DNA of 64,000 bases. Source: Candidatus Omnitrophota bacterium (GTDB lineage: Bacteria; Omnitrophota; Gorgyraeia; Aquiviventales; Aquiviventaceae). The position numbers and the translations under genes are program-made. The notes below the pieces were generated by a model, which had not been told where the DNA came from, did not search any database, and worked only from the letters and a program-made list of their open reading frames with translations. The stretch lies in the NCBI GenBank assembly GCA_016193175.1, contig JACPSR010000052.1, forward strand, positions 11,226-75,225, read 5' to 3'. Shown here piece after piece: positions 1 to 64,000 of this stretch (position 1 is the stretch's first letter; every line of letters starts with the position of its first letter).

Positions 1-250
1 TGCACCACGTCCTGGACAAGCGTTGGGAAGTTCTGGGGGTGCACACCCGGTATGGCCTCATCCACCTGGCGCTCAACCTCGACCGTCACCGCGACATCGC
101 TCCCTGGAATGTTCGGCCGTGCGACCTCCAGATCTAACAAGGTGAGTCTCGGGGCCCCACTCTTCTCAGCCTGCTCCCTGGCCCAGTCGAGTTGCACCTG
201 CAGCGCGTTGAGGTCCACCAACGCCAGCGGTGTTGCGGCAGGCTCGCGTG
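1..250 (-). repeat. Internal coding repeat (pairs with 3990..4240, ~92% identical; spacing ~3990 bp), encoding PLALxDLxALQVQLDWAREQAEKSGAPRxTLLDLEVARPNIPGSDV...VDEAIPGVHPQNF.TLVQDVV.
   Basis: + strand 1-250 against 3990-4240, aligned by eye. The shadow ORFs 52..579 and 4039..4452 start with near-identical peptides. Confidence 0.9.
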
Positions 251-3200
251 TGGGCGTAGCCGTAGTCTTCGCGCCAGCCTCGGCGACGGCGGCCTGCAAT
301 CGCGTAAAGAGCTCGCCTTGTGGCAGGAGGGAGAGGGTCTCTCCCCCCTCCATCCTGGGCCCTGAAAGCGCAGGGATCGATAGCTGCTTTGCGAGAGCGG
401 CCAGCTCCCGCACGCGCCCATCCAGCGAGCCATCTCTTGGGCCGACGAAAAGGACGATCCCGCCGCGCTCCGTTTGTATCGACGTCATGAGCGCCCCATC
501 CGCCTCTTTCGCCTTGATCTGGAGCGCAAGGTTCTTAACGAGATTGACGAGCGCGGTGTCCCCTTGCACCTGCTGCTGATCGAACGCCAGGCCGCCGTCG
601 GGCGCTTCGGCCCTCGCCGGGAATGCGGGTGCTGGCCGGTCTCCTTTGACGATGACTGTGGCATCGTCTTTCAGGTACACCCGGTAGAGGCTGGCTTGCA
701 TAGCCGGTTCGCCAATCCGCTGCCGGAGGTGTTGCTCGACTTGATCGGTCAGCCGCTCGCGGTCCACTAGCCAGTCGCCACGCTGTCTCCATACCTCTTG
801 TCCGTTGACCAGCACAACAAGATCCATCACACGCCCGGCGATGCGATCAGTCGCATCCTGCGCCGCTTCGATGAGCGCCGAACGGAGTTCTGCAAACGTC
901 CTCCAGGCCTGGGCCTGTCGAATCTGCTTGATGGAGCGATCCACGATGTACCGCCGCATTTCCTCGTCCACGTGCGGGCGCAAGCCCTCAAGGGCACCGA
1001 GGATGCGTTGCTGGTCCTCGCCGGGAGCCTCCACACCGATCTGTCCGAGGGCCACCACCACCTTCGCCTTCTCGTAGACGACCGGGTCGTTGAGCAGCTC
1101 GAGGAGCGGCGGAATGGCCTCAACCGGGCGCGGCTCGATTTGACCGAGGACATACGCCAGGGCGCCGCGGTGTTTCCGACGGATGCTGGTGAATCTTCGA
1201 AGCAGCGTGGGGATGACCTCTGGCGCCTCGTTGGCAATGGCAATCAACACTTTTTCTGCGTGATAGACCACAAATGGATCGTCGTCCCCCAGGGCCCGGC
1301 GTAACAGAGGAACCGCGTCTTGTGCCTCCCTCCCGTACGCTTCGAGGGCATCACCGGCACCAGCCCGGAGCGACGCCGGGTCCTGACGCAGCTGCCCGAC
1401 CAACGCGGGAACGGCCAACTGAGCGGGAGGCTTGAAGCGTCCCACCAGATGCATGCTAATGGAGCGGATGAACGGATCATCGTGATCCACGAGCGCGACC
1501 AATTCGCGCAGGTCCGCTGCCTCCGTTACCCCAATCCGCTCGAGCGTCCTCGACACCTCCCCGGCAACTTCGCGGAACTCGAGCTCCTCCGACGCGTGAG
1601 GTCCCTGCTCCACCAGGAACGCCAGCAATGGCTCAACGGCTGCGGTCGGTTTTGGCTCAATGCGGCCGAGCGCATTGGCTGAACGGAGGCGAACGGCGTG
1701 GTGGTGATGCCCGAGGGCATAGAGAAGATGTGGCACAGCCGGCGAACCGATCTGAACAATGACGCGTCCATAGATGTCCCCCACCTCTTCCGGGAACTGG
1801 CTCAACCCTGGGAGCGGCACAGAGGCGAGCGCATTGATGAGCGCCGGAACCGCCTGCTCCCCGAGCTGAATCAAGCCGGTCACGGCCGCTTCACGCACAG
1901 ATGGCTCCTGGGCTTTCAGATTTCCGACCAAGGTTTCGATCTCCTGATTCGCGCCGCCGGCTCGTTGATCATTCGGAGCAGGATCGCCTTCGGGTTCGGC
2001 AAGCCAATCCAGGCCGCGGCCTCGGGCACCGACATCCTCCTGAGTGGTGGTGGCTCGGCGCAGAGGTCGGTTGTCCACGAACCACGCGGCTGGAGTCGGC
2101 CAGACCCCTGCCGAGGTGAGTTGCGCGATCGCTTCCTCTCTATCTCGTGGCGACATCGCGCGGCCGCCTCGTCGAAGCCGTGGAAACTGTTGATCGACTC
2201 TGACCAACGCCTCCCTCACCTCCCGGCGCAGCTCGAAGGTGACGGAAGCTCCTGGTGGCCCGACCGCTTCCAGTCCGTATCCTGCCGCGATGGCTCGCAG
2301 TTTTTCCTCCCCGCCTACCCGACTCATGGCATCCTGATGCACCTCAATGCGATGATCCGCTCGGGCATGTTGTTGGAGGAGGGACCGAACGTTGGCTTCA
2401 GGATTGGTGGTCCCCCGAACGACATCATCCCAAGTCATCACGAAGAGCGGCAACTGTTGACGCGCGGGGGCCGACGGCGGAGCGGGTCGGTCTTCTTCTA
2501 CACTCACCAGCCAGTCCTCAAGCCACTGGATCGCTTGGATCTCCGCTCGCAGCTTCTGGTAAGACATCACCTGCCTGACCTCTGTGGGATTACGTGTGTT
2601 GAGGGCGTCAATCCACGATGAGACCGTGTGAGGAAGCCAGCCCACCCGATAGGCGGGGCTGATGAACAGTTGGCGGAAGAAGCGATGCAGCGATGGGACG
2701 CCTGTGGACTGCGCATCTCGTCCAGCTTGTTCAAAGGCCATCGAGAACGCTCGCCACTGATGCTCCCATTCCCCTTGGGTGGAGATTTCATTTGTGAGCT
2801 GGTCGAGTCGCTTCCAATCAAGCTGGCCACCGGCCAACTCGCGCATGAGCGCCTCCACGTGCCCCCGAGCCCACGCAAGAACGGGGTGCACCTTGGCACG
2901 GAGTCTCCGCACAATCACTTGGCTCGCCTCCATCTTGTCAGGCGGGATGGTCGGTACCTCGGGAACCCCTGACTCCGCCGGCGCGCCGCCGGCCACAGGG
3001 GGCAGACTGCCTTGGAAGCTGCGCAGCAGACGGCTAAGGTCCTGCTCATCGGTTAGGGTAATGCGCGCTTCCGCTAGAGCCTGCCGCAACTGAACCTCAG
3101 TGGGCGCGGTGTGCTCCACACGCAGATGCGCCAGCACTGGCAACAGTAAGGGATGGGCCTGCAGGAGCGCTGGGTCGACATTGGCCGTGACAAACGCCTC

Positions 3201-6200
3201 GGCGCGGTCATACGCTGCCAGTCGCGACACGGCGGTGATTGCCTCATGAGCCGCACGATCAACCGCACCCGCACTCTCAGGAATGACGATTCCCTGCTGG
3301 GCGGCTACCTCGAGCAGTTGCTGATGGGCTTCGCGCTCGTTGAGCTGATCTCGATAGAGGCGGGCAAGTACGTTCAGCGCCGGCAGGTTCAGTTGACGCG
3401 GTGGGCGGGGATCGATCAGCCACGGATGTCCAACCACCCTCTTGATGTGTAGTTGCGTATCCGTCGGCAGCTCCTCGAACGGCCCTCCTAACGTTGCGAA
3501 CGCGCCTCGAAAGTCGGCAGGCAAATCAGCGTTCCGGAGGATCGCGCGAACGATGTCGTCAGGCGTGGCGTCGGCATCGATCCTAATCGAGATGGACACA
3601 ATGTTCCCCTGAACATCTCTTTTGTCCAGAGGGGGTGGGAACCAGACACCCGAGCCCAATTGCGTTGAACGATACAGCCGCACTGTCAGTGGTGCGCCCT
3701 CTCCTCCTCGACGCCAGACCTCAAGAGGCCCAACCGGTCGCTCTCTCGTGAGGTTGAGCGCTGTGGTGAACACGCGCTCGATATCAGCCGATGTCAAGCC
3801 CTGCGGGGCCGGCACTTCCCTCGGCGCGCCGCCGGCCACCGGGACAAGATGCGGGGCTTTGGCTCTCGCGAGTGTGAGGAAGGCGTCTCGAACATCTCCC
3901 GGGAGGCCTGGTTTCGCCAGGACGGTACGGACGATCGCTGTGGCGATCGCTTCGTCGGTTGCGTCGACGTTGGCGGTGGCGCGAACGCGCACCACGTCCT
4001 GAACAAGCGTTAGGAAGTTCTGGGGATGCACACCCGGTATGGCCTCATCCACCTGGCGCTTAACCTCAACCCTCACCGTGACATCGCTCCCTGGAATGTT
4101 CGGCCGCGCGACCTCCAGATCTAACAAGGTGGGTCTCGGGGCCCCACTCTTCTCAGCCTGCTCCCTGGCCCAGTCGAGTTGCACCTGCAGCGCGTCGAGG
4201 TCCGCCAACGCCAGTGGACGCTGCGGAACAGATGGTGTCGACCTGCCCGCCACTGGAATGGGCCGATTCAGGAGCAACTGCTGCACGGCAAGTGAGGTGA
4301 GCCACTCTTCACCTCGGGCAGGCACGGTGTGCCATCCTAATCTGGTGGGATACGCAAGGTTCTCCGCCGTATCATCGACAAACAAGATTTCACTCATCAA
4401 CCTAACGCCACTGGGCTGTTCCTGTCTGAGAATCGTCAGCGCCCGTGCGTAGAATGCTTCGGGGTTGTCTTTCAGGACTCCGACTTCTCCTGAGGTAATG
4501 ATGCGAAGACCACCCAGAAATGGAAAACGGCCTTGGAGGTGCCGGGCACGCTCTTGGTCCATATTGGTGAGGACCGCAAGACGATACCCGCGTTCCATCA
4601 ACGCCTGAACCAGTTTCGCCACGCCAGGGATTTCCTCATAGCTCTCGTAGAGCCAGCGCCGGAGCTGCTCGCGCTGCTGGGCTTCAGGCAGGGCGAAAAA
4701 TGTCCGTGCCTCGGTAGTGGCTGTTTCTTTCCCAGCAGTGATCCGTGTCAGCTCTCCAAGGACGTAACCCCAGTACGCATCAGCATCCAAGGTCCCCAAC
4801 CTGAGTTGCTTGGCCGGCTCACCTGTTTCAAGCCACTCTCTCACCGTCTCAGGCTCGACACTGAATGTCCGGCTGATCTGGTCAGCCGCCTTGCTCAGTC
4901 CGTTGGTGAGCAGCGTGCCTGTCAAATCGAACAGCACAGTCTGTACCGTCAGGAGCTGCCCGGCGGCTAACCGTTGCTGAAAGGCCTCCAGGCGTTCAAT
5001 CGCGTCTCGCACCTCAGGCCCTCCCTCTCTCACACCGTCCAGAGACCGAGCTTCGACCGTTTCACGTAACCTTGATGCCAGCGAAGGAATCCAGCCCACC
5101 ATGTTTCCAAAGACATCGCTCATGGAATGAAACAGCAAGAGCAAGCCCGATGCTTGGGCAGCGCGGAGGGCCTGATTGATCGCCCCGTCAAATGCCTCCC
5201 AGTTGCCTTGGAACTGACGCATAAGCGCTCCGAGCCGATCCCAATCAAGCTCCGCATCAGGCCGTTCGATCTCACGCGCCACTTCACCCAACCGTTCCTG
5301 AACTTGCTGAAGAGAGGGTTGCGTGAAGGGGTGGAATGTTGCCATGATCGCCTCGGCAATTCCCGCCTTGGCAGCGTGAAGGACCGCATCGGGCGTGGCG
5401 TCCGCATCGGCATAGAGGGCCACGATGTTCCCCGGGGCGTCCGCATGTCCCGGAAGGACTCGCACCCGCACCTCGGAACCCGAACGCTGTGAGCGATGCG
5501 CCCACACCGTCAGCGGCGGACCCTCTGTGCTCCGCCACACCTGCACCGTCGGACCGCTCTTGTCTTCCTGTCGTGTGAACTTCAGCTCTGTGGTTAACAC
5601 CTGATCAACGCTGCCCCAATCCTGTGGTGGTACCTCGGGAACCCCTGTCTCCGTCGGCGCGCCGGCGGCCGGCAGGCCGCCGCGGGCGGAGTCGGCCATG
5701 GAAGTGAGCAAGGGGACTTGCCGGACGTAGGCCTCGGCCATGTCTCGCTTGATGCCCAGACCAACCAAATGGTCGACAGCCGTCGCTCGATCGAGATCGC
5801 CGAGATAGACGAGCGCTAAGACTTCACGAACCGCTCGGTCGCTGTGGATCCTCGTGATCGTCCGACGGTCGTTCGCGGCCAGCGCATTGACCGGAGACGC
5901 CTGTGATACGTACGGTTCTGCTTCCCGCGCAGTGATCCCGAGGCCCTTGAGCTGTCCAATCGCGCCTGCTGGTGTCAGCTCGAGAAGGTAGCGTCGCGCC
6001 AGCACCTCGCGCACCGCGGGGTCCTTGTGGATGTTGCCGATGAACGCCCGGCGAGCGTTCGTCAAGCGCTCATACGCTGGCGCTACGATGGTAGGACTCG
6101 GCCCACGAGTGGCGGCTGAAGGAAGCACCTCGTCTGCAGTAGCACGCGGAAGGGTTTGGAGATTCGCATATCTTGGCTGGTTGATCGAAGATTCCGTCGC

Positions 6201-9200
6201 GTCGACAAGCGCGATATCGCCGCGTGCCGAAATCAAGAAAAAGCCATGCCCGCCTTCAGTGATTTCTCTCCGGCCTTCGAAGGGACCGAGAATGTTCCCT
6301 TCTGACGTCACGATGCTGACTCGGCCCTGCTCATTGACAATGAGGAGCTCTGCGCTGGCATCAGCTGAGGTGTCTGCGAGCACGATTGAATCAATGTAAC
6401 GGCGCTCCCCTTCTCCCAATAAGCGCGACAGCAGCTTCTTGCCTTCAGCAACACTCAAACGCGCTGCGCCCCTCTGATACGCTGGAACTCTCAAGTGCGG
6501 TTCCACCAGCGCGCCGCCGGCAGCGGGGAGGAGATGCAGAGCGTTCTTCTCTCTTACTAAGTTTGTGAAAGCGCCTCGAAAGTCGGCAGGCAAATCAGCG
6601 TTCCGGAGGATCGCGCGAACGATGTCGTCAGGCGTGGCGTCGGCATCGATCCTAATCGAGATGGACACAATATTCCCCATCACATCTTTTGCGTCCAGAG
6701 GGCGTGGGAACCAGACACCCGAGCCTAATCGCGTTGAACGATGCAGCCGCACTGTCAGTGGTGCGCCCTCTCCTCCTCGACGCCAGACCTCAAGAGGCCC
6801 AACCGGTCGCTCTCTCGTGAGGTTGAGTGCTGTGGTGAACACGCGCTCGATATCAGCCGATGTCAAGCCCTGCGGGGCCGGCACTTCCCTCGGCGCGGCG
6901 CCGGCCGGCGCAGGAGGAATCCATTGCACCGCCGCTGAGCCGACCGATAAATCGGGTACTTCAACCTGAGCATGCGACTTCGCAGCGACCAGACTATAAA
7001 AGCCTTTCGTCGTCTGCCCCGCCATCGCCCCGCGATTGCCCTCGCCCATGACGAGGATCACGTCGGCCGCTTCCCACGCCGCAAGGAACTCCGGCGCAGG
7101 CCGATACGGGTCAAGCGCTCGTGTCTGCGAGCCGGTTGAAATGACACGCAGGCGCGATCCGCCTCCACCCAAGAAGCCGCGCACCGGGTCTGCGTCCAAC
7201 CGCGCGCGCTCATCCGTCACCGTGCTGTCCACATCAGCCTCGACGGCTTTGGCCGCAATGGTGACTGTATGGCCCTGCTCCGTCAACCGCCGCTCCATCG
7301 CCGTGCGACCCACGCCCTCCACGATGTCGTTATCGACGAGAATCAAGACGTTCTTGGGACCTTCGCTCAGTTCCTGACTGAGCTGAGTGCGGTCATCGAT
7401 TGCCAGCGCCCTTGCCTCCTGCTGCTGCAAGAACGCCAGCATCTTGCGAGCGTACTCCCCCAACGCTGTCTCGCCGCCTGCCGCAGACCTCAGCAGATCG
7501 CTAGAGCCCGCGCTGTTCGCCAACGCGGCAATCCCCAGCACCCAGCGATCGCGCTGATCGGGAGCCAGTTCGTCATAGCGTTGCGCCAGCCACGGCATCA
7601 TCACGGCCACAGCCGTTTGCCGGGCTGAGGATTTGAACTGGGCGAGCGGCTCCCCCATGATCTCGCGGAGCGCGGCGTACCACAGCCCTTCAACTTCGCG
7701 TACCGTCCGTTGCTGGAGACGCCCCAGACGAGCCACGAGGGCACCTCTTGCCTGTTCGGCCGCTGACCGTGATTCTGGTTTGACATGTCCGATGGTTTCG
7801 ACGTAGAGATCGAGGTGGCGGAGCAATTGGTCGCGAATGGCCGGCTCGCTCACGGGTCCAGGCCCAAAGACGTAGGTGGCGGGATTCGCGATAATCCGTC
7901 CATCCGCCGGCCCGCGCGCCTCGAGTTGTACCACCAGCCGCTCCACGACAGCTTCAGGGGTAGCGGCCGGCTGAGACCGATCATCTCTCGGGGTGTAGCC
8001 GGCTTCGGGCTCGCCAAGCCCATCGTGACCTTTGCCCTCCACACCCTGCCGCTCCTGGAAGTACGGGGACTCGCCCGTCGGGGCAACGCCGTAGAGGTTC
8101 CTGAGGGCACGGAATTCAGGATCCGCATCTTGCCGGCGGATGAAGTCGGCGGCCTCGTCAAGATTGGAGAGCTCCTTGAAGTCGTGGAGCTCTTCTCCTT
8201 CGACCATGAAGAAACCGGTGTTCAGCTCGGGATACTGCGTGACATCCCCCGTCACGTACTGGGGGAGGAGGTAGCGGGTCAGCTCCTTCCCCTCTGCGTC
8301 CTTCACCACCCTCAGCTCAAGGTTGACATCGGCGCCTCGCTGCTGGAGGACCTCCCCGACCTCTTTGATCTTGGACAGACCGGAGAACTTGTTGTACGGG
8401 ATTCCTCCTTTGGCGGCGAGCTCCCTCTCCACCATGTCCTTGGTGGTAGGATCTGAGGTTGAGATGGTCTCGCCTAAGAATTTCGGCGCCAGCCGGGGAT
8501 CGGGTTTGGTGGTGATGAGCTTCTCCGGGTTCTCCGAATCCGGTCGTCCCTTATTCTCAACGAGCTCCACCAGGTAGCGGTGGCCCTTATTCAGCAGGCG
8601 CAGGCCAAGCGCCAACCAATCCACATCCACGGTGGCGCTGGTGAGCTTCGTCAGATCATTGATGCGGTACTGCTGGATGACCTCTCCGCCGCGCGCGAGG
8701 AGGGTCTCGGCGAGCAGGCCAGGGACGAGCATACGCTGTTTGTTGAGGAGCCGGTAGCCGCTATCCTCCTGCACAAAGACATGCATGGCGGGGTAGAGAT
8801 GCCCAGGCATCACAGGGTCGACGTCGATCGCCTGGACGATGACTCCCTCCTCCAACCGATAGGGGTGAAAGACCGGTACCGGCACGATGTAGAACCGCTC
8901 CGGGGAGAAACCATAGAATTGATTCGCGATGAGATCCTGGACGATCTCCCGCTCCATCCGGGCGCTCACATGGAAGATGATCTGTTGGTTCGCGACCGCT
9001 TGTTCCGGGGAGATCCCAAGCTCCAGATGCGCGCGGGCCAGCCGTTCAATCTCCAGCCGAAGCTGGAGCAACTGCCTGGGACCCCAGGGCAGCGTGTAGG
9101 GGCTACCGGCGAGATGCCCGACGTCCAGGAAGTATATGGCCCCCACCTCGCGATCAGTCACGTCTTTCCCATGCTTCCTGAGGTCCTCGCGCATCCGCCA

Positions 9201-38798: not shown

Positions 38799-38802
38799 CC
38801 TC

Positions 38803-40395: not shown

Positions 40396-40447
40396 GGCTT
40401 GCTGCCTGCTACGGTTACCGCGCCACGACCATCCTAATATTAAACAC

Positions 40448-40476
40448 ATAATAATAGATTTCAAAAACATTGTCAA
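40448..40476 (-). promoter_or_regulatory. Sigma70-like promoter TTGACA-N17-TATTAT, in the only AT-rich island of the window. It would drive the 530-aa gene and the downstream megaprotein gene.
   Basis: Minus strand reads ...aattgcTTGACAatgtttttgaaatctatTATTATgtgtttaatattaggatgg. The -35 sits at 40476..40471 and the -10 at 40453..40448 with a 17-nt spacer. It lies between the stop of the 5401-aa gene (40504) and the ATG at 40395, in an otherwise >60% GC window. Confidence 0.5.
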
Positions 40477-40486
40477 GCAATTTTTT

Positions 40487-40502
40487 ATTAGTGGCTTAGT
40501 GG
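40487..40502 (-). repeat. Tandem direct 8-mer GCCACTAA x2 immediately 3' of the 5401-aa gene stop.
   Basis: + strand ttagtggc ttagtggc at 40487-40502. The TAA stop at 40504-40506 is the start of the first copy on the minus strand. No clear hairpin terminator accompanies it. Confidence 0.6.
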
Positions 40503-40503
40503 C

Positions 40504-56709: not shown

Positions 56710-59700
56710 GAGTTCTGTGGTCCTTTGTCCGCCAGCCCCACGTAGTGCACGGCGATGTTGCGCGCGCCCCCTTGGGTCAGGCGTTGCAAGGTCGGCAGGG
56801 TCGAGGGCTCGGATGGGTTGGACCACAACGTCTGCACCCGAGCAGCCGCAGGCACTCCAAGGCTCCAGATGTTCAGGAGTTTGGACGCCCTGTTCGCCTC
56901 CAAGGCGCGTTCGACCGCCGGCTGCTTCAACAACGCCTCAAAGGACATCGCAGGTGGCCGGTCAGCTTGAGCCTCCGGCTGCGGCAGCGGCAGGATCCCT
57001 TGACGAGGATTGACCGGCGCCCTTCCTCTTCTTCTTGTTCTTGAGCGGAACGACGACACCGAGAGCCCCACGAGCCCAGCCCCGTACTCGGGATGCGTCT
57101 TCACCCAGGCCCAGGCCGGCCAGTCGGCCATGAGCGAGTCCACAAAACCCGTCGGGATGAGCCAGGCCGCCGCCGCAATCCCGAGCGCGAGGCCAGCGTA
57201 GACGAGGATGCCGAGTTGCAAGAAGCGAGGGTTCCCTTTTAGGGTGTCGGTCGGTTTCTCAGGACGACGGGCACTGGCCTCGTCTTGGATCACTCGCCAA
57301 TCGGGCCGGGAAGCGGCGAAGAACCCATTGAGAAGGGAGGCGGGCCACAGGAGATCCGCGTGCTCGGGGAGCAAGAGCGCAAAGACGGCAGCGGCAAGGG
57401 CCAGTGAGAGGCTCGTGATGATCCCAGCCAGGGCGATGCGAGCGGCGGCACCTCTATCAGCCTGATGCCTCACGCCCAGGCCTGCGCTGAAGAGGCCTCC
57501 GCGGATGCGGCCAAATGTCGGAGCAGCCTTCAACCGCTTGGCAACGAACCCGTGAGCCGACTCGTGGATCAGGAACGAGAAGAGGTAGATCAGGCTCAGC
57601 GGCAACAACCGGACGAGGTTGACGCCCGGCTCAACCCCCAGAAGCGACGGCAGCATCCCTCCCAGCCCCACGACCAGCGCCGCCACCCCGAGGTTCACCC
57701 ACGGCAGGGCCGATGAGGATGAGGCTGATGGGGGCGTCGGTGCCGCCTCATCCACCCCCTCCCTCGCCACGCCGCTGGTGCCCGCTGATGGGCCGATCGA
57801 GCCTGTGGGCCCGCGAGGTGTTTGGGTGTAAGGAGCAATGAGGGACGGTTCTATGTTCCTGGCGAAGAACGGCGAAAAATCCTCGATGTTAGCCCACAGC
57901 CAGATCGCGCCGCGCCACGCCGCGAGACTCCCGACGAGGGCAAGCCCACCGAATGCCCATCCATAGGCGCCGGTGATCGCGAGCCACGCCAGCACCGGGC
58001 TGATGGAGAACCCGTACACGAGCCAGTGGATTGCTGCCTCGCGGCCGGTGCGGCGGCCCCGGCTCGCCCAGTGGATCGCCGCATGGCCAAGCTCATGGCC
58101 AAGGAGGAAGGCCTGCACGTAGGCGCGGTAGCGACGGAGTTGAGGATGCGCATGGATCGCGCGATCGTCGGGATTGTAGTGGAGGAGAGCCGGGATATTG
58201 CCTTCGCTCAAGCCAGGCAGCAGAGCCCCTCGGGTGGATCGGACAATCGAAAACCACAGGAGCCGCTTGAGCCAACCCTGAGGAACATCTCCCGGCCCTG
58301 CACGCTCGGGATGAATCGTGGCAATCATCTGCTGATCAACGACCATCCGGCTCCCGAGCACTGCGAGCCATGCGGAAATTAAGACGCCGAGCCACGAAAG
58401 GAGAAAGAGCCGCCCCGCGATCGCCGGATCGCCTCCTGTGAACCAACTGACCCCGCTGGCTGCCATGAGAAGCCAGAGCAGCCCGCTGATCACCCCCGCA
58501 CTCGCCAGCAGCCCCCCGCCCCGCACCGGCGCTGCCTTGCCTTTGGGTGTTGAGCTTGCCTCCGATGATGGCGGGGCTGTCCCTCCTGCGGCATGCCGCT
58601 TTTCGAGCAAGCGCACGAGCGCTTCGGCATGATCAGCGAGCGTCACGAGCGTTGCCACGTTGCGCTGCATTTCCGGAATGCGCGTGTGGAACGACCCAAG
58701 CTCAAGGCGGTAGTCATCGGCGGCCTGACGAAGGAGGTCCCCCGCCTTTTCGGCAATCTCTGGTAGCGGCCGGTGCTGAGCCAAGCCTGCCTGAATCATC
58801 TGCCCCACTTGCTGAACTCGACGTAACCCTGCCGCGGCAAACGCTCGATCCTCCTCGAGTTGGCGAACTTGCGCTTCAAACCGGGAAGGCTCAGCGGTCT
58901 CCGTGACCGCCCACACGCCCCGGCCGGACCAAAGCTTGAAGGCGCGCAGGAACCGCGCCCGGGCATCCGAAGGCAGCCCGGCCAGCGCCTCTTGGGTGAC
59001 CAGACGTTTCCTCGGCACGACAGGGACCGGAAACATCCGTTGGAGCTCGGCGTCGCGGAGGCCGCCGGGTCCTGACACGCCCAGCTCGAACACGGGCCGG
59101 CCTACGTCGTCCAGCCCAATGCTGATCGCCTTGCCCGCGCTTTTGCCCATTATCCGTTTCCATATGGTCGGCTCGAATCGCCGCAAGACCAACCGCAGCG
59201 GCTTGTCCGGAGCATTCAGATACACCTTGTCGGCTGATGCAGGATTGAGCGGATCCGTCGGCACAAACGTCACCAGCAGCGCCTGCCCATTCGCGTGATT
59301 GATGAGGTACAGCACCCGGCCCTGCTCGGAGACGGCGTAGCTGATCATTGGGGCTGGCGCTCGTTGCGCGAGGCGCACGACGATCTGGCTGGAGGGACCC
59401 TGGCCTTCCGCGGCCAGCGCGCCGAGCACGACGCTCGTGTGGGGCGTCATGAGCATAAGCCGCTCCGGCAGATGCTGCATCAAGCGCCGCGCTTCTTCTT
59501 GCAAGGCGATCCTGGAGGCAACGTCTAATTCATCGGAAGGACGACGGGCACGGGCGTCTGACCCAACCCAGACTTTGAGATACCTCTGAAGCTCAGGCGA
59601 TACCCCGGACGCAGCGTCCTCGATCCATTCCATGAGCCGGAATCTCATATAGAAGGGGCGCGGCTGAGACCGACCCATCGCCCGCGCTTGATCCCCCGGC

Positions 59701-62700
59701 GTGGCGCCTTCGAGCGCCAAGGCCAACAGTTCGAGTTCCCCGAGCGCATCGTCATAGGTCAGCGTGTCGCTGCGACCTTCAACCCATTGCGTGAAGCCCT
59801 GAACCTCATGCCGCTGATCGATCCATCGCATCAACTCGCCGGCGAGCGCCTCGACCCGCGCCAGCTCAGCACCGCTCAGCACCAAGCCGTGCTGCGCCGC
59901 GGCCTGGATGCGCTGGCGGATCTCCACAAGGCGGGCTCGCCAGACCTGCTGCAACTGGCGATAGAGGTCCGCATCCTGAAAGAGTCGGGTGAGCACAGAA
60001 TCGCCTCGTTTGAGACGGAGGGCGTGAGCCATGGCATAGAGATTTCCGTCGCTGCGTTCCAAGAGTTCGGCAAGGCGTGCCTTTTCTCCGGGATCCATTG
60101 CTGGCGGCGCTTCGGCAGCCTTCGGTGGCCGTGTCTCCAGCACAAGCTGTCCCCGCGCGAACTCATCCAGCGCCCGGTCGAGCGCGCCTCCGGATCCCAG
60201 CGTGTCGAGATCAAACCACCTCGGCCGCGCTCCGGGGCGAGCCAGACAGAATCGATCGGATGTCTCTGCACGCTTGGGGTCGGCGGGGAGGAAGGTGATC
60301 AGCAACTGCTCCCCGGTCCAGTCGTTGACGAGGAGGGCGAGGCGGCCTTGGCCCGAAACGGCGTAGCGGATCTCGGCGCCGCGCGCGGGATCTGATCTCA
60401 AGCGAAAGACCAGTTGGATCGCTGGCGCGCCAAGCACCACATCGCTCTCTGGAGTGAGAGGTTGAAGTGGCTCCGAAGCGCGCGCTCGGACGAGCGTAGA
60501 CGCCTCTTCTTGCAGGGCGATCCGGCTGGCCATGTCCAACTGATCATCGGACCGACGTCTAACTGTCAACCACTCCCTCAAGTAGTCCGTGAGCGGCCGG
60601 GATAACTCGGAGCCGCGGACGCTGACCGTAGCCTGTAAATCAGAGAGTAGCCCGGCCGCAGAAGCCGCAGGTCGACCCATGGTCCTGGCCTGGGCTGACA
60701 GGCTGGCTCCTTCGAGCGCCAGGGCAAGGAGCTCGAGCTGCGCCAGCGTCCGAGGCGAGGGAAGCCGACCGGCGCCTCCCTCGAGCCACTGCCGGAGCTC
60801 CTCCACGTCAGGAAGCCCCTTGAGCCATTGCATGAGTTCTTCGACGAGCGATTCCGTCAGGTAGCCGCCGTGGCGGAGGAAAAGACTGCGTTCCGCCGCG
60901 CGCCGGATTCGCTGCTCGACTGCATTCAGTCTCCTGCGCCAGACGCTGCGCAACTGCCGCCGAAGCCTGACGTCCCCTAAGAGCCGCTTGAGGAGCCGCC
61001 GGGAGTTCATGCGCCGTTCTTCGGCCATCTGGTAGAGATCGCCATCGGTCTGCTTCATGAGTTCCTTCAGACGGGCTCGTTCGGCTGGGTGCATGGCTCG
61101 GACGGCCTTTTGGGGTCGAGCGGGACGAGGACGTCGAGCCTGAGGTTCGCGAAGACTCGGTGGTGGGGCAGGCCGCTCAGAGGCCGGCCTCGCCTGCGCC
61201 GGCTGCTCTTCAGGACCACGCACGGCTGGTTGAGGTTTCCGCCACCACCATTGAGCTCTGGATGGCTGACGCAAGCGCCCTAATGCCCTCTGTGCAATTG
61301 CCCCCACGTCTTGCCTGGAAACCCCCCAGGCGGCGCCGATGGCTTCAAAGCTCCTCTCGTCCTGGCTGTATCGAGCTCGGATAACCCGCTCCTCCCTTGT
61401 AGACAGCGTTGCAAGCACGCGATCTTTTATGGACCTGAGGAGCCCCTGCTCGGCTCGTCGCTCTCCTAACGCTTCCTCGGGATCAGCGACCTTCGCTTCG
61501 ATGCGCGCGGTGGCTGGGACGGCTGACATGATCCTGAGAGCCTGCTCAAACCGTTCGCTGAGCGAGGGGTCCTTCCATCTCATCCACTCGCGCAACCCGG
61601 CGCGGTCCGTGGGGCTCAAAGCCTTGAGGCCAGGATCCCCGTAGGACGGCCATTGGCGCAGCAGCTCCAACGCCAAGCTCAGATTTGTTGGAGCCTCCAG
61701 CCCAAGTGCCTCGGCTATGTGGAAAACGAGGTCCCATTCAATTCGGTTCCACATCGTACCTAACGGTACCCTGATCCCTGGCCGCCCCTGTAGCCAGCTC
61801 ACCACAGCAACATGCATCTCAGCCCAGAACTCCTCCTCATCGATGGCTGACGCGGGCCCGCCAAACAATTCGATTAGGAAGCTCAGGTCATCAAACAGCC
61901 GCTGGGCAGAGCGATGCACGTCCTCAGGACGTAGCGCAATGCCATAAGTCCTGGGCCGCCTGTTCGTCAACGCCAGGTAGACCTTCAGCCACTGGCCGAA
62001 CCCGCCTGGGAGGCGGGCCATCGCGTCGAGGAGCGCTTCGCGCATCCACTTGGCGTGCGGCCTGCGCTGGCTCATCGCCTCCTCCAAGGCCGGTCCTTCC
62101 CGCGTGGCAAGATTGCTGATCTCTTCGCCGAGGCGGCGCAGGCGCTTGGCGGCGCCTGGGCTCTCTCGATAGACCACCTGCGCCAGCGCGGTCACTAGTA
62201 CCTGTAAGTCGCGGAGTCGTCTAACGTAGTGGTCGCTGCGCGTCGTCGCCTGCAATGACGCGATGTGGCGCTGCATCTCAGATACCAACCAGGGGACGCG
62301 CGCGCGCGGAAGGCGTTGACCGCTCACCATCCATACCGAGACGCCCGCCGCCAGCAAGAGGAGGCCGCCGACCGTCACCCAGGCTGGGATTCCCGCAGTC
62401 CCGCCGGGGAGCGGCGCCATCGCGAGCGAGCCCAAGCCGAAGACAACGATGCTGAGGTGCATCAGCCGTTGACTTATGCTTGGGGTCAGACCCCAAGCAC
62501 GAAGTTCCCCGATTGGGGTCTGACCCCTACGCAGACGCCAGGCTATCCCCACCACCACCCCGGCCAGACCGAGGAGGCCGCCGCCGAGGAGCCAGGCCGC
62601 CAAGCCGCCGTGCGTCCCGAGCCAGGAGCCGAGCCCGCCCCACGAGGGCCCGTGCGCCGCGGCCCAGGTGGCGAGGGCCGCCAGTCCTGCGCTCGCGCCG

Positions 62701-63998
62701 ACCGTCTCCAGGGCGAGGAACCCGCGCGGGCCGGTTGGCTTGACACGTCCGTCGACGGGTGCTACACTTGCGGCAGTGGAGGCACGTAATGGGAAAAGTC
62801 TATCCAACGTTGCTACGGTGCTATGCGCGTCCTGAAGGCGATCATTACCTCGCCTTCTGCCTCGAGGTAGGCCTGTGCGATCGGGGCGAGACGCTGGACG
62901 CTGCGAAGGCGTCGCTTGAGGAAGATCTCGTCGGGTATTTAGAATCCTTAACCCCTGAGAATCTCGCCGACCTGTTCCCCCGCCCTGCTTCGTGGGAGGT
63001 GTATCTGGACTACTACCGGGTGTGGTGCCTGGTAGCCCTCGCGCGACGTTTCCGTCAGCTCGCCCACCACTGGCTTGTCTTCGTCGAGCCCCTCGTGCTA
63101 ACGCCTCGTCTGGCGCATGGGGCGTTTCGTCCTTAGCCAGCGGGACCTTGTCCGCGTCCTGCACTCCCACGGCTTCAGGCAGATCTCCCAACGCGGCTCC
63201 CACCAATACTGGGAGCGGCCTGGCTACAAAGTGACGGTTGACGTCAAGTATCCGGAGTACAGCGGGTGGTTGCTCCGCATGATGATTGAGCAATCCGGTC
63301 TGCCGAAGTCCGTGTTTCGTCCCACCAGCCACTAAGAGCGCCACCGTCACCGCACCGATCCCGCCCCACCGTCGCACGAAGGTCACCCCCACCCAGACCG
63401 CTAGCCCTAGCAGAAGGCCGCCGAACGTCACCCACGAGGAGATGCCGAAGGTTGTGAGCCATGCCGCGAGCGCGGAAATCCCGATCCCGACGCCCGCCGC
63501 GAACGGGACAACAGTGAGGGGCGTGTTGGGGCTCGGGCCGCTGGACGAACCAACTGAGCCATTCGATTCCGCTGGTTCTGGGAAGAAGGTGCGGACTTCA
63601 GATTCGTAGTAGTCCTGCAAACGCCGGAAGAGCGCGCGGGCAGTGCGATCTTCAGGGGAGTCCGTAGGAGTTGGCTCACCGGTAAAGGTGCGCGAATCCC
63701 AGATGATACTAAGGTTTTCTTGTGCGCGAGAGAGGCCCACGTTGAGGCGACGCAAATCCTTCACAAAGCCGATTCGCCGATCCGCGTTACTGCGCACGAA
63801 GTCAAAGATGATCGCCCGGTTCTCCCCACCCTGGTAGCTATCGATTGTGGTCACGAATGGCCAGCGAGTGGCCTGTGGGTAGGCTTCCTGGAGCAGCTGG
63901 CGAATGAGCTCGACTTGGTCGTTGTATGGCGTGATGACGGTAATCTGGTCTAACGGAATGCTCCGAGCCTCATAGAGCCTGATGAGTTGTAGAACTTG
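56706..63998 (-). CDS. Giant protein, 5'-truncated (N-terminus lies beyond the window end; at least 2430 codons in window). It has an SF1 Upf1/AAA_12-like helicase domain at the N-terminal side, then multi-pass TM segments, a sigma70-r4-like HTH, two tandem ~330-aa repeats and two HExxH M50/site-2-protease-like motifs.
   Basis: Track ORF 56706..63854 begins at a GTG within helicase motif V. Manual translation of 63855..63998 in the same frame is stop-free (...SMRLGIPLDQITVITPYNDQVELIRQLLQEAYPQATRWPFVTTIDSYQGGENRAIIFDFVRSNADRRIGFVKDLRRLNVGLSRAQENLSII), so the gene continues off the window. TGA stop at 56706-56708. Confidence 0.85.
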   Translation of the reverse strand, partial: QVLQLIRLYEARSIPLDQITVITPYNDQVELIRQLLQEAYPQATRWPFVTTIDSYQGGENRAIIFDFVRSNADRRIGFVKDLRRLNVGLSRAQENLSIIWDSRTFTGEPTPTDSPEDRTARALFRRLQDYYESEVRTFFPEPAESNGSVGSSSGPSPNTPLTVVPFAAGVGIGISALAAWLTTFGISSWVTFGGLLLGLAVWVGVTFVRRWGGIGAVTVALLVAGGTKHGLRQTGLLNHHAEQPPAVLRILDVNRHFVARPLPVLVGAALGDLPEAVGVQDADKVPLAKDETPHAPDEALARGARRRQASGGRADGNVARGLPGTTPGSSPDTPPTKQGGGTGRRDSQGLRILNTRRDLPQATPSQRPASRPDRTGLPRGRRRGNDRLQDAHSTVATLDRLFPLRASTAASVAPVDGRVKPTGPRGFLALETVGASAGLAALATWAAAHGPSWGGLGSWLGTHGGLAAWLLGGGLLGLAGVVVGIAWRLRRGQTPIGELRAWGLTPSISQRLMHLSIVVFGLGSLAMAPLPGGTAGIPAWVTVGGLLLLAAGVSVWMVSGQRLPRARVPWLVSEMQRHIASLQATTRSDHYVRRLRDLQVLVTALAQVVYRESPGAAKRLRRLGEEISNLATREGPALEEAMSQRRPHAKWMREALLDAMARLPGGFGQWLKVYLALTNRRPRTYGIALRPEDVHRSAQRLFDDLSFLIELFGGPASAIDEEEFWAEMHVAVVSWLQGRPGIRVPLGTMWNRIEWDLVFHIAEALGLEAPTNLSLALELLRQWPSYGDPGLKALSPTDRAGLREWMRWKDPSLSERFEQALRIMSAVPATARIEAKVADPEEALGERRAEQGLLRSIKDRVLATLSTREERVIRARYSQDERSFEAIGAAWGVSRQDVGAIAQRALGRLRQPSRAQWWWRKPQPAVRGPEEQPAQARPASERPAPPPSLREPQARRPRPARPQKAVRAMHPAERARLKELMKQTDGDLYQMAEERRMNSRRLLKRLLGDVRLRRQLRSVWRRRLNAVEQRIRRAAERSLFLRHGGYLTESLVEELMQWLKGLPDVEELRQWLEGGAGRLPSPRTLAQLELLALALEGASLSAQARTMGRPAASAAGLLSDLQATVSVRGSELSRPLTDYLREWLTVRRRSDDQLDMASRIALQEEASTLVRARASEPLQPLTPESDVVLGAPAIQLVFRLRSDPARGAEIRYAVSGQGRLALLVNDWTGEQLLITFLPADPKRAETSDRFCLARPGARPRWFDLDTLGSGGALDRALDEFARGQLVLETRPPKAAEAPPAMDPGEKARLAELLERSDGNLYAMAHALRLKRGDSVLTRLFQDADLYRQLQQVWRARLVEIRQRIQAAAQHGLVLSGAELARVEALAGELMRWIDQRHEVQGFTQWVEGRSDTLTYDDALGELELLALALEGATPGDQARAMGRSQPRPFYMRFRLMEWIEDAASGVSPELQRYLKVWVGSDARARRPSDELDVASRIALQEEARRLMQHLPERLMLMTPHTSVVLGALAAEGQGPSSQIVVRLAQRAPAPMISYAVSEQGRVLYLINHANGQALLVTFVPTDPLNPASADKVYLNAPDKPLRLVLRRFEPTIWKRIMGKSAGKAISIGLDDVGRPVFELGVSGPGGLRDAELQRMFPVPVVPRKRLVTQEALAGLPSDARARFLRAFKLWSGRGVWAVTETAEPSRFEAQVRQLEEDRAFAAAGLRRVQQVGQMIQAGLAQHRPLPEIAEKAGDLLRQAADDYRLELGSFHTRIPEMQRNVATLVTLADHAEALVRLLEKRHAAGGTAPPSSEASSTPKGKAAPVRGGGLLASAGVISGLLWLLMAASGVSWFTGGDPAIAGRLFLLSWLGVLISAWLAVLGSRMVVDQQMIATIHPERAGPGDVPQGWLKRLLWFSIVRSTRGALLPGLSEGNIPALLHYNPDDRAIHAHPQLRRYRAYVQAFLLGHELGHAAIHWASRGRRTGREAAIHWLVYGFSISPVLAWLAITGAYGWAFGGLALVGSLAAWRGAIWLWANIEDFSPFFARNIEPSLIAPYTQTPRGPTGSIGPSAGTSGVAREGVDEAAPTPPSASSSSALPWVNLGVAALVVGLGGMLPSLLGVEPGVNLVRLLPLSLIYLFSFLIHESAHGFVAKRLKAAPTFGRIRGGLFSAGLGVRHQADRGAAARIALAGIITSLSLALAAAVFALLLPEHADLLWPASLLNGFFAASRPDWRVIQDEASARRPEKPTDTLKGNPRFLQLGILVYAGLALGIAAAAWLIPTGFVDSLMADWPAWAWVKTHPEYGAGLVGLSVSSFRSRTRRRGRAPVNPRQGILPLPQPEAQADRPPAMSFEALLKQPAVERALEANRASKLLNIWSLGVPAAARVQTLWSNPSEPSTLPTLQRLTQGGARNIAVHYVGLADKGPQNS
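57400..58400 (-). other. Polytopic membrane region with two HExxH motifs resembling the M50 (site-2 protease/RseP/SpoIVFB) intramembrane metalloprotease core.
   Basis: QAFLLGHELGHAAIHWASRGRR (verified 58061-58110) and LFSFLIHESAHGFVAKRLKAAP (verified 57541-57590). Both sit inside predicted TM helices, as in M50 (LHELGHAL.A). Confidence 0.5.
59100..61100 (-). repeat. Two tandem, diverged ~330-aa (~990-nt) protein repeats.
   Basis: Unit A starts MHPAERARLKELMKQTDGDLYQMAEERR (~61095). Unit B starts MDPGEKARLAELLERSDGNLYAMAHALR (~60105, verified). They share ...ELELLALALEGA..GDQARAMGR..., ...ELDVASRIALQEEA..L..., ...IRYAVSGQGRLALLVN.../...ISYAVSEQGRVLYLIN.... Confidence 0.75.
61290..61420 (-). 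other. Sigma-70 region 4-like HTH in the helicase-linked giant protein.
   Basis: Verified at 61330-61440: LATLSTREERVIRARYSQDERSFEAIGAAWGVSRQDVGAIAQRALGRLRQ. Confidence 0.55.
62300..63560 (-). other. TM helix clusters following the helicase domain.
   Basis: LTVVPFAAGVGIGISALAAWLTTFGISSWVTFGGLLLGLAVWVGVTFV...GIGAVTVALLVAGG (~63300-63520) and LAALATWAAAHGPSWGGLGSWLGTHGGLAAWLLGGGLLGLAGVVVGIAW...IVVFGLGSLAMAPL...VTVGGLLLLAAGVSVWMV (~62300-62750). Confidence 0.65.
63690..63998 (-). other. SF1 helicase C-terminal RecA-like domain (Upf1/DNA2/AAA_12 type), motifs IV-VI. The domain continues beyond the window end.
   Basis: ITVITPYNDQVELIRQLL (motif IV-like), VTTIDSYQGGENRAIIFDFVRSN (motif V; compare TVDSFQGREKDVIIFSCVRSN), IGFVKDLRRLNVGLSRAQENLSIIWD (motif VI; compare IGFL.D.RRLNVALTRAK..L.IVG). 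Confidence 0.8.
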
Positions 63999-64000
63999 TT

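Follow-up and report, generated by a model that had tools for sequence, protein, structure and literature searches.

The DNA analysed in the present work, a stretch of 64,000 nucleotides (nt) from a Candidatus Omnitrophota bacterium (contig JACPSR010000052.1; referred to below as the window), is filled by four genes on one strand, called here A, B, C and D, three of which are giant, and it raises the question of what kind of system such a locus encodes and where the many enzymes in D would act. An initial annotation made from the letters alone did not recognize the locus as a described system. The window almost certainly lies, however, within a giant-gene island of an uncultured Candidatus Omnitrophota bacterium and belongs to a published giant-protein class (Archaeovorin-like, of the “multi-enzyme metabolic” type). 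Comparison with related loci shows a conserved core, made up of a predicted promoter, gene C and then one or more large proteins that begin with a predicted signal peptide and an LRP motif (SP-LRP proteins) and that carry enzymes of glycolysis and gluconeogenesis; in the window these appear fused as D. A mechanism is proposed more tentatively: D and its relatives may be Sec-exported, envelope-associated enzyme arrays that lie outside the producer cytoplasm and are used to exploit prey, a reading that could nearly as well be right as wrong. The explanation as a whole, comprising the identity of the locus, its conserved core and the mechanism, is judged to be probably the best one.

The window was re-translated in all six frames. 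Four minus-strand frames are open, at 56709..63998 (2,430 codons, open to the window edge), 40507..56937 and 38806..40503 (both in a second frame) and 3..38909 (12,969 codons, open to the window start), and they hold the following genes.

56706..63998, minus strand: gene A, partial, with its N-terminus beyond the window; no fewer than 2,430 codons here, or 2,595 when assembly L100 is included
40504..56709, minus strand: gene B, 5,401 amino acids (aa) from its ATG
38803..40395, minus strand: gene C, 530 aa
3..38798, minus strand: gene D, at least 12,932 codons from its ATG, with its C-terminus beyond the window
56706..56709, minus strand: ATGA, in which the stop codon of A overlaps the start codon of B

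Base composition predicts 0.028 stop codons per codon, or about 367 in the frame of D and about 605 over the four open reading frames (ORFs), and none was observed in 21,293 codons, so the four open frames are not due to chance. The GC content at the first, second and third codon positions (about 0.70, 0.46 and 0.74) is even along each ORF in blocks of 500 codons. The numerous ORFs of 150-565 aa on the plus strand are an antisense side effect that is usual for coding at 63% GC, the value for the coding strand and for the lineage. The arrangement described in the initial annotation, in which four co-directional minus-strand ORFs fill the window, is borne out by this independent translation: no in-frame stop was met, and the minus register of 1..38798 holds no stop. 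The packing that it described was also recovered, since the ATGA overlap at 56706-56709 and the 4-nt spacing between C and D (GAGG) are both present and are compatible with coupling within each pair, and the AT-rich island of roughly 100 bp is indeed the only non-coding sequence in the window (40396..40503, 108 bp, 40% GC). B has an alternative earlier start, a GTG at 56826.

Protein C matches, with 100% identity from end to end, the NCBI entry “MAG: hypothetical protein HYY59_02590” of a Candidatus Omnitrophica bacterium (MAG, metagenome-assembled genome), which lies on a contig of 87,084 bp; this contig bounds D at about 20,600 aa, unless the contig is itself truncated. Seven Logan assemblies, each from a different sequencing run, also encode the exact C protein, and along their entire lengths the seven contigs match window 28803-42597 at 100.000% identity, so the joins between the end of B, the island, C and the start of D are not chimeric; independent assembly confirmation covers this interval only. 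A scan of genome contigs with a chimeric query, made of an N-terminal fragment of A and a C-terminal fragment of D, gave unrelated helicases only, which places the source genome outside the GTDB representatives. A further contig from the same population, L100 (JACPJH010000066.1, from MAG HYW10), overlaps window 54832-64000 and reaches 496 nt beyond it, and in it the frame of A stays open for at least 165 codons past the window without reaching a start. L100 differs from the window by an 88-nt deletion, an insertion of about 106 nt just before the stop of A and a difference of about 65 nt (window 60712-60799, ~56716-56720 and 56480-56525), as a result of which A is cut earlier and its C-terminal part is joined in frame to B, while ORFs of 1,276 and 1,977 codons remain open. 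Long ORFs are kept in both versions, and ORF boundaries within the island are therefore either strain-variable or assembly-sensitive: either they are fluid or one of the assemblies is wrong.

The recognizable features of D are given below. Transmembrane (TM) candidates, here and throughout, were taken from Kyte-Doolittle windows, a crude method.

38649..38798, minus strand: Sec-type signal peptide (cleavage between PSAFA and WG), then the LRP motif at aa 48-50
38154..38336, minus strand: J domain, aa 155-215, HPD intact (Pfam 1e-13)
35802..35984, minus strand: two to three hydrophobic segments, aa 939-999 (Kyte-Doolittle)
28410..28721, minus strand: two TM candidates, aa 3360-3378 and 3445-3463 (Kyte-Doolittle)
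26913..28082, minus strand: full-length phosphoglycerate kinase (PGK; Pfam 1e-101; PDB 1php 4e-74)
26079..26621, minus strand: cupin-type glucose-6-phosphate isomerase (PGI; TFGHEH..E and PPGWSH motifs present)
22968..23297, minus strand: second fragment like triosephosphate isomerase (TIM)
19731..20867, minus strand: TIM-like, with an insertion of about 170 aa (His and Glu kept, loop 6 divergent)
17601..18488, minus strand: class II (GlpX) fructose-1,6-bisphosphatase (FBPase; RDEAP, VDPxExT and DGD kept)
15168..16304, minus strand: GAPDH (catalytic Cys in ASCTTN, codon 15765..15767, and His kept)
12399..13571, minus strand: Glu/Leu/Phe/Val dehydrogenase (GDH; GGGKG lysine motif present)
9867..11576, minus strand: phosphoglucomutase/phosphomannomutase (PGM/PMM; TPSHNP, DTDGDR and SGTEP kept)
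6951..7649, minus strand: ARMT1-like damage-control phosphatase
4359..4943, minus strand: HAD-superfamily hydrolase
1038..1934, minus strand: HEAT repeats

The N-terminus of D reads …AFAWGQASE LRP LPTALTG, the same layout as in the SP-LRP relatives considered below, and the J domain (PF00226), in which KVVHPDRN is present, scores 51.4 bits against a cut-off of 27.8. The modules then follow in the order PGK, cupin PGI, TIM-like (two pieces), class II FBPase, GAPDH, GDH, PGM/PMM, ARMT1-like, HAD and HEAT, and at least 12 distinct Pfam families are spread over the 12,932 aa with none dominating. Alignments to solved structures and motif checks indicate that catalytic motifs are kept in PGK, GAPDH, PGM, class II FBPase, PGI and GDH, with TIM the exception: the PGK aligns to 1php at about 38% identity over its full length with its motifs conserved, and the cupin PGI keeps GHxH…E and the second His. 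The PGK is 42-50% identical to canonical 400-aa PGKs and 29-30% identical to the SP-LRP PGKs of low-GC Omnitrophota, and a search of 1.84 billion representatives with the PGK domain of D found no special clade of embedded PGKs, the best matches being PGKs of the ordinary 400-aa kind together with two tandem PGK-PGK proteins that have no signal peptide. The two TIM-like pieces lie about 800 aa apart, and the halves of the larger each begin with a Y(A/V)(L/V)V(D/G)(G/H)-like pattern, which suggests a partial barrel duplication. D has no low-complexity windows, and BLASTP and k-mer counts detected no internal repeats in it, nor enriched k-mers or surplus internal LRP sites above expectation, so D gives no sign of repeated cleavage sites. 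A homologue search with the first 1,000 aa of D returned only one unrelated DnaJ, from a database that seems to be without giant proteins, and a single-sequence AlphaFold2 model of aa 1001-2000 was uninformative (pLDDT, the predicted local distance difference test score, 38.8).

That giant ORFs are a hallmark of Omnitrophota has been published (Seymour 2023, PMC10066038); the type giant, from Ca. Velamenicoccus archaeovorus LiM, has 39,678 aa (Kizina et al. 2022, as cited in PMC10066038). The “Archaeovorins” were defined in West-Roberts et al. 2023 (10.1101/2023.11.21.568195), where the cut-off for a giant is 30,000 aa (gene > 90 kb). They are described there as having many TM helices, SecA_DEAD, N-terminal C39/S8 peptidases, HEAT/TPR repeats with glycosyltransferase, methyltransferase, glycosyl hydrolase, peptidase and NUDIX domains, a reported beta-helix tubule, and “less common” TIM, PGI, FBPase, PGM/PMM, FBA and PPDK domains predicted to be extracellular, with genes like those of type II secretion systems (T2SS) and type IV pili (T4P) upstream and genes for PilZ and solute-binding proteins (SBP) downstream. 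A 2026 preprint (10.64898/2026.06.07.730766) adds a “multi-enzyme metabolic” class of very long Omnitrophota proteins, up to 147,155 aa, and reads nearly half of the long proteins of the phylum as TM-only, with cytoplasmic domains.

The locus shares with the Archaeovorins its phylum, huge non-repetitive ORFs, multiple TM segments, and HEAT (in D) and TPR (in B) repeats, together with TIM, PGI, class II FBPase and PGM in D and PPDK_N in B; FBA is absent from the window and present in relatives, and PilZ and solute-binding proteins are found downstream in two relatives (L010 and L019). D differs in its length, which at no less than 12,932 and at most about 20,600 aa is below the 30,000-aa cut-off, and in the addition of PGK, GAPDH, GDH, a J domain and ARMT1, and Pfam scans within the window found no SecA_DEAD, C39/S8 peptidase, glycosyltransferase, methyltransferase, glycosyl hydrolase or NUDIX domain. 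With the class of the 2026 preprint it has in common many distinct Pfam families on one polypeptide with none dominant, a signal peptide plus TM architecture, and sugar-metabolism modules (PGM, HAD, HEAT), whereas the proteins of that class are of 80-147 k-aa and come from low-GC Gorgyraeia of deep groundwater, and the locus here has 63% GC, is much shorter and is split over adjacent ORFs. The locus is closest to the “multi-enzyme metabolic” description, and its kind is already known. The view that it is not a described system must accordingly be given up: C is identical to a protein of a Candidatus Omnitrophica MAG, and giant ORFs with the same enzyme domains have been published (West-Roberts 2023; Seymour 2023; the 2026 preprint). 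The C family, the LRP motif, the depletion of cysteine and the retention of active sites all go unmentioned in both West-Roberts 2023 and the 2026 preprint.

On seven long contigs with related loci, the homologue of C follows a gene of 2.5-34 k-aa in six cases (the upstream genes encode 34,114, 26,119, 11,572, 6,624, 6,471 or 2,551 aa), and in five of the seven the genes after C carry recorded glycolytic or gluconeogenic domains (PGM, FBA+PFK+GAPDH, FBPase_3, PGK, PFK, PPDK), arranged as follows.

Downstream of C, relatives: PGM, 2,747 aa
Downstream of C, relatives: FBA+PFK+GAPDH, 1,673 aa, then PPDK, 2,590 aa
Downstream of C, relatives: FBPase_3, 983 aa, then PPDK, 2,010 aa
Downstream of C, relatives: PGK, 794 aa
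Downstream of C, relatives: PFK, 1,177 aa, then PPDK-PGK, 1,880 aa

In L010 and L019 the enzyme genes are followed by genes for PilZ and a sugar-binding protein (SBP_bac_1). A further 80 metagenome loci supplied 63 non-redundant ORFs directly downstream of C, 55 of which begin with a charged n-region and a hydrophobic segment; L[RK]x stands right after this segment in 45 of the 63, and the strict LRP in 24. Typical junctions are “…PAWA LRP EG” and “…PPAYA LRP SAS”, and alignment on LRP shows that small residues at +4 to +6 also belong to the motif, as in many cases does a KDGG some 22 residues on. The exceptions are a few spurious ORFs and the GlmS genes of one clade (L039, L041, L046, L057, L090), which encode a cytoplasmic sugar-phosphate enzyme of 609-632 aa with an MCGI… N-terminus and no signal peptide. 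Strict LRP was also found in 19 of 161 other ORFs with N-terminal hydrophobic segments, and each of these 19 is an additional ORF (253-3,178 aa) that lies in the same clusters and runs in the same direction. FBA, FBPase_3, PFK, PPDK/PEP-utilizer or GAPDH domains occur in 11 of 16 sampled downstream proteins. The N-termini of the full-length SP-LRP relatives resemble signal peptides of the AxA type, and no further TM segment is present in 19 of 26. In three loci (L047, L078, L084) the SP-LRP proteins have twin-arginine-like n-regions (…RRFFAxL…), which hints at Tat rather than Sec export in this one sub-clade; D has no RR pair.

The enzyme proteins of the relatives are separate and of 0.8-3.3 k-aa, those of the window form the single ORF D, and D resembles a fusion of modules that other loci encode individually. 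In the closest relative, L009, whose C is 59% identical, the gene downstream of C shares the N-terminus of D, is without the J domain and carries the PPDK-like piece that is found here in B. The giant genes beside C in L009 are nearly unalignable with A, B and D save for short patches (37-47% identity over 90-450 aa). The giant ORFs evolve much faster than C, and they exchange modules. Two Y1 (IS200/IS605-type) transposase genes lie between the C homologue and the next giant gene in another relative (L011:11745-13827), which fits the mobile-element-rich flanks that have been reported for giant-gene loci.

The conserved arrangement also includes a site in the AT-rich island between B and C.

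40476..40448, minus strand: promoter-like site TTGACA-17-TATTAT, an 11/12 match to the sigma-70-type TTGACA-17-TATAAT

An A-tract precedes the -35 box, and a CTTGACAA...TAT(T/A)AT box is also found upstream of the C homologues in six other Omnitrophota loci, whose GC content ranges from 42 to 68%. This conservation argues that C-D has its own conserved promoter, and that the conserved unit consists of promoter, C and downstream enzyme genes; in all loci compared, little space separates C from the gene after it. No terminator-like site was seen after B in the B-C island, and A-B, with its ATGA overlap, is probably either a separate transcription unit or read through. Of the earlier proposal that the locus is a single operon, the tight packing within the A/B and C/D pairs therefore stands, while transcription from one promoter is not supported, given the near-consensus promoter between B and C that is conserved in six relatives.

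Several further observations concern this leader region. Right after the stop of B (window 40482-40503) there is a tandem direct repeat, GCCACTAA GCCACTAA, and then the A-tract just upstream of the -35 box; the GCCAC core of the repeat recurs in leader hairpins of relatives. In four low-GC relatives (L016:9797-10000, L017:9745-10000, L018:9812-10000, L019:9799-10000) a strong hairpin lies between the promoter and the start of C. Its closing stem, GCCACGG/CCGUGGC, is invariant, whereas its inner stems vary by locus; a U-run comes next, the z-scores in single-sequence folds are -5.2 to -6.7, and the hairpin resembles a terminator or an attenuator. The leader in the window is shorter and without this hairpin. 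Rfam matched no family in the window or in six related loci, and RNAalifold gave no consensus for the leaders of the low-GC relatives, the hairpins differing in length.

Protein C itself has an N-terminal signal peptide and a core of the EreA/ChaN/TIKI/TraB fold, which is interrupted by a helical insert of about 300 aa (AlphaFold2 model, pLDDT 91). Four residues, H79, E107, R446 and H474, are invariant in a 64-sequence alignment, in the motifs IQDAHxNYEAQ, LVEGG and GGFH, and this His/Glu/Arg/His series is in the order expected for a putative active site of the EreA/ChaN/TIKI/TraB type. The alpha/beta fold is common to C and the EreA/ChaN/TIKI/TraB-PrgY/RRSP/HopBA1 superfamily; C differs in its all-helical insertion, in its signal peptide, in a similarity that lies below Pfam thresholds (no Pfam family scored above threshold in C) and in a gene context specific to Omnitrophota giant-gene clusters. 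A signal-peptide-like N-terminus is present in all sampled members of the family, which comprises at least 199 homologues in the protein database, the named ones among them all Omnitrophica/Omnitrophota, and at least 366 in JGI metagenomes. C is a putative exported hydrolase, found across Omnitrophota.

The proteins of the window are almost devoid of cysteine, with 7 Cys in 21,293 residues (0.033%) over the four, of which A has 1, B 2 and D 3. The three Cys of D are in the signal peptide, at aa 2746 and at the catalytic position of GAPDH, a pattern that is hard to explain unless cysteine has been selected against except where catalysis needs it. SP-LRP proteins have a median Cys content of 0.28%, compared to 0.86% in ordinary TM-free neighbours (p = 1e-8). 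Cysteine avoidance also covers the helicase and sigma-4 parts of A, which are expected to be cytoplasmic, so that the depletion may extend to the island as a whole instead of being confined to exported parts.

A and B, which precede C, are giant proteins with many TM segments; their modules (helicase, sigma-region-4, TPR and PPDK-like) are listed here.

63696..63995, minus strand: A, C-terminal half of an SF1 (Upf1/DNA2-like) helicase, AAA_12 (Pfam E=1e-26)
61266..61418, minus strand: A, sigma-70 region-4 helix-turn-helix (HTH), aa 861-911 (Pfam 3e-8)
57294..57593, minus strand: A, M50-like stretch, a TM helix and then HESAH (aa 2145) (motif; Peptidase_M50 E=0.023)
55642..55773, minus strand: B, sigma-70 region-4 HTH, aa 313-356 (Pfam 6e-10)
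46960..48903, minus strand: B, TPR repeat region, aa ~2603-3250 (Pfam)
45232..45789, minus strand: B, PPDK_N/PEP-synthase-like ATP-grasp fragment, aa ~3641-3826 (Pfam 2e-10)

TM candidates number 11 in A, where several form pairs, 10 in B, where they form clusters, and 9 in D (about 6 of those in D convincing). The helicase homologues (P0123-P0127) are SF1 helicases of 1,255-1,625 aa, and the PPDK_N fragment of B aligns to the gene downstream of C in L009. The sigma-region-4 domains of A and B are RpoD/SigA-like, region 4 of RpoD/SigA giving the best PDB matches for that of A, and they sit between TM segments. The domain content originally read from the sequence holds for the helicase (AAA_12), the PEP-synthase-like fragment (PPDK_N), the J domain and the metabolic enzymes; M50 is weakly supported, at 14.5 bits in Pfam against a cut-off of 27.2, and was not retained, its HExxH beside a TM helix being a partial motif with no NxxPxxxLDG found; and an NTase was not detected by motif scan or by Pfam (E<=1 over most of A and B, E<=0.01 for B aa 2701-3600 and for D). 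A Fic/DOC candidate at the C-terminus of B was likewise rejected, with a weak Pfam match (E = 0.003-0.007) and no HxFx[DE]GNGRxxR motif. BLASTP found neither paralogy among A, B and D nor internal repeats, and PDB sequence searches with D 216-3560, B 360-2650 and B 3850-5401 gave no matches.

If the signals in D are taken at face value, the protein would be threaded through Sec by its signal peptide and held at the envelope by a few TM segments. It would thereby place an array of sugar-phosphate and triose-phosphate enzymes, cysteine-free yet catalytically competent, outside the predator cytoplasm, in the periplasm, at the surface or in the zone of contact with prey. There the enzymes could convert prey-derived metabolites to forms that the cell imports, for which the PilZ and sugar-binding ABC components encoded just downstream in relatives may be relevant, while C would act on the exported proteins, for example by trimming or recognizing the N-terminal LRP module; a role for C in the processing of SP-LRP proteins is speculative. 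A number of points weigh against this scheme. PGK, GAPDH, GDH and the J domain depend on ATP/ADP, NAD(P) or an Hsp70 partner, which are unexpected outside a cytoplasm, and the signal peptide followed by 3+2 TM segments could by parity return all enzyme domains of D to the cytoplasm, in a topology that itself rests on the crude hydrophobicity windows mentioned above. The T2SS-like and PilZ/SBP genes reported beside giant genes are not visible within the window, the flanks lying outside it. Neither Pfam nor PDB sequences gave a match to some 60% of D and the greater part of A and B, although these stretches are not repetitive and not of low complexity. All related loci were seeded with C, and the link between C and SP-LRP proteins is thus no independent test of association. 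Finally, the greater closeness of the PGK of D to canonical PGKs than to the low-GC SP-LRP PGKs implies that the modules are not simple orthologues across the phylum.

Several of these points would be accommodated if D were instead a membrane-tethered cytoplasmic metabolon, in which the hydrophobic segments only anchor a scaffolded, possibly housekeeping, glycolysis/gluconeogenesis beside sugar importers. Its enzymes would then have the ATP, NAD(P) and phosphate that they require and the J domain its DnaK, the intact catalytic motifs and the likeness of the PGK to canonical housekeeping PGKs would be natural, and what the 2026 preprint reads in nearly half of the long proteins of the phylum, TM segments only and domains in the cytoplasm (10.64898/2026.06.07.730766), would extend to D, where the parity of signal peptide + 3 + 2 can put aa 3464 to the end inside. 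Parity permits a cytoplasmic orientation in D, but not in relatives with a single signal peptide: 19 of the 26 full-length SP-LRP relatives are without TM segments beyond a typical cleavable AxA signal peptide, and the positive-inside rule places the bodies of SP-LRP relatives outside the cytoplasm. The metabolon also leaves the strong depletion of cysteine relative to cytoplasmic neighbours unexplained, and in D the J domain lies between the signal peptide and the first TM cluster; it is considered possible but on the whole unlikely. Export and cofactor requirements would be reconciled if D and its relatives were prey-injected polyprotein effectors, which enter the prey cytoplasm, with its supply of ATP, NAD and Hsp70, and rewire central carbon metabolism towards exportable hexose phosphates while the sigma-region-4 modules of A and B disturb prey transcription and C processes the LRP module during export. 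Such a role would suit the export signals, the depletion of cysteine, the cofactor-dependent enzymes and the J domain together, the gluconeogenic flavour of the enzyme set (FBPase II, FBPase_3, PPDK, PGM), a predatory or parasitic phylum in which peptides of the V. archaeovorus giant protein increase on attached cells (PMC10066038), the T2SS/T4P-like systems that adjoin giant genes in the literature, and the presence of the toxin-effector domains RRSP and HopBA1 in the fold family of C. There is, however, no sign of translocation into prey and no delivery apparatus within the window, no precedent is known for the passage of a polypeptide of over 12,900 aa through two envelopes, and internal cleavage motifs or repeats were not found in D by BLASTP or k-mer counts, so that injection is regarded as quite improbable. 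Equally little weight is given to a dedicated Omnitrophota pathway of export and processing, in which the SP-LRP module (with its small residues and frequent KDGG) would mark enzyme cargo, C would recognize or trim it, and the cargo, cysteine-free yet catalytically intact and in this lineage fused with a J domain into one polyprotein, would be delivered to or into prey cells, which can supply cofactors and Hsp70, as a metabolic-hijack array.

Enzyme-like modules at a cell surface need not be catalytic; surface GAPDH, PGK and enolase moonlight in pathogens, and the modules of D could be moonlighting binding domains or inert coat spacers of a surface scaffold or adhesin. HEAT and TPR repeats and a TIM with a divergent loop 6 and a large insertion would fit such a protein, and published work on giant Omnitrophota proteins leans towards adhesion and cell-wall attack (PMC10066038; 10.1101/2023.11.21.568195). 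Catalytic residues are nevertheless kept in six enzyme modules, and of the 3 Cys that D has among its 12,932 residues one serves as the GAPDH nucleophile, which argues for selection on catalysis; the retained active sites make a purely adhesive role unlikely, and the scaffold is judged to be a poor candidate. Least probable by far is an artefact, whether a mis-assembly or a set of decaying pseudogenes that are not translated as single proteins. The L100 indels of 88, ~106 and ~65 nt do alter the A/B boundaries, and only 28803-42597 is independently confirmed, but zero stops where about 605 are expected, uniform codon-position GC and conserved catalytic motifs are not what such a history would leave, the indel variant keeps its ORFs of 1,276 and 1,977 codons, and equivalent loci occur in hundreds of independent metagenomes.

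Partial parallels to D can be drawn from better characterized proteins. Natural fusions of glycolytic enzymes include the PGK-TIM of Thermotoga maritima and the TPI-GAPDH of stramenopiles, which resemble D in having consecutive glycolytic enzymes on one polypeptide with their active sites retained; unlike D, they are two-domain proteins of the cytoplasm or of organelles, with no signal peptide and no thousands of unknown residues between modules. MARTX and other multi-effector polyprotein toxins offer a functional analogy for the metabolic-hijack reading only, being very large exported proteins with several unrelated enzymatic modules, and the MARTX effector domain RRSP has the same fold as C, but D is without RTX repeats, a cysteine-protease autoprocessing domain and a signal for type I secretion.

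Omnitrophota are widespread, ultra-small predators or parasites in whose small genomes giant genes occupy considerable space. The locus described here is a compact and unusually readable example, in which D combines at least seven enzymes of central carbon metabolism, most with intact active sites and together nearly a full sugar-phosphate set, with an export signal and almost no cysteine. It also supplies modest handles that are not in the two giant-gene surveys: a conserved promoter, the exported TIKI/EreA-fold protein C, the LRP motif, and the occurrence of the same modules as separate genes in relatives. These handles make the function of giant proteins testable, through the processing of LRP by C, through secretion, and through the question of whether the glycolytic copies are extra or the only ones. 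If it is true that the enzymes work outside the producer cytoplasm, the locus would represent an unusual mode of predation; if not, it would be a striking membrane-tethered metabolon.

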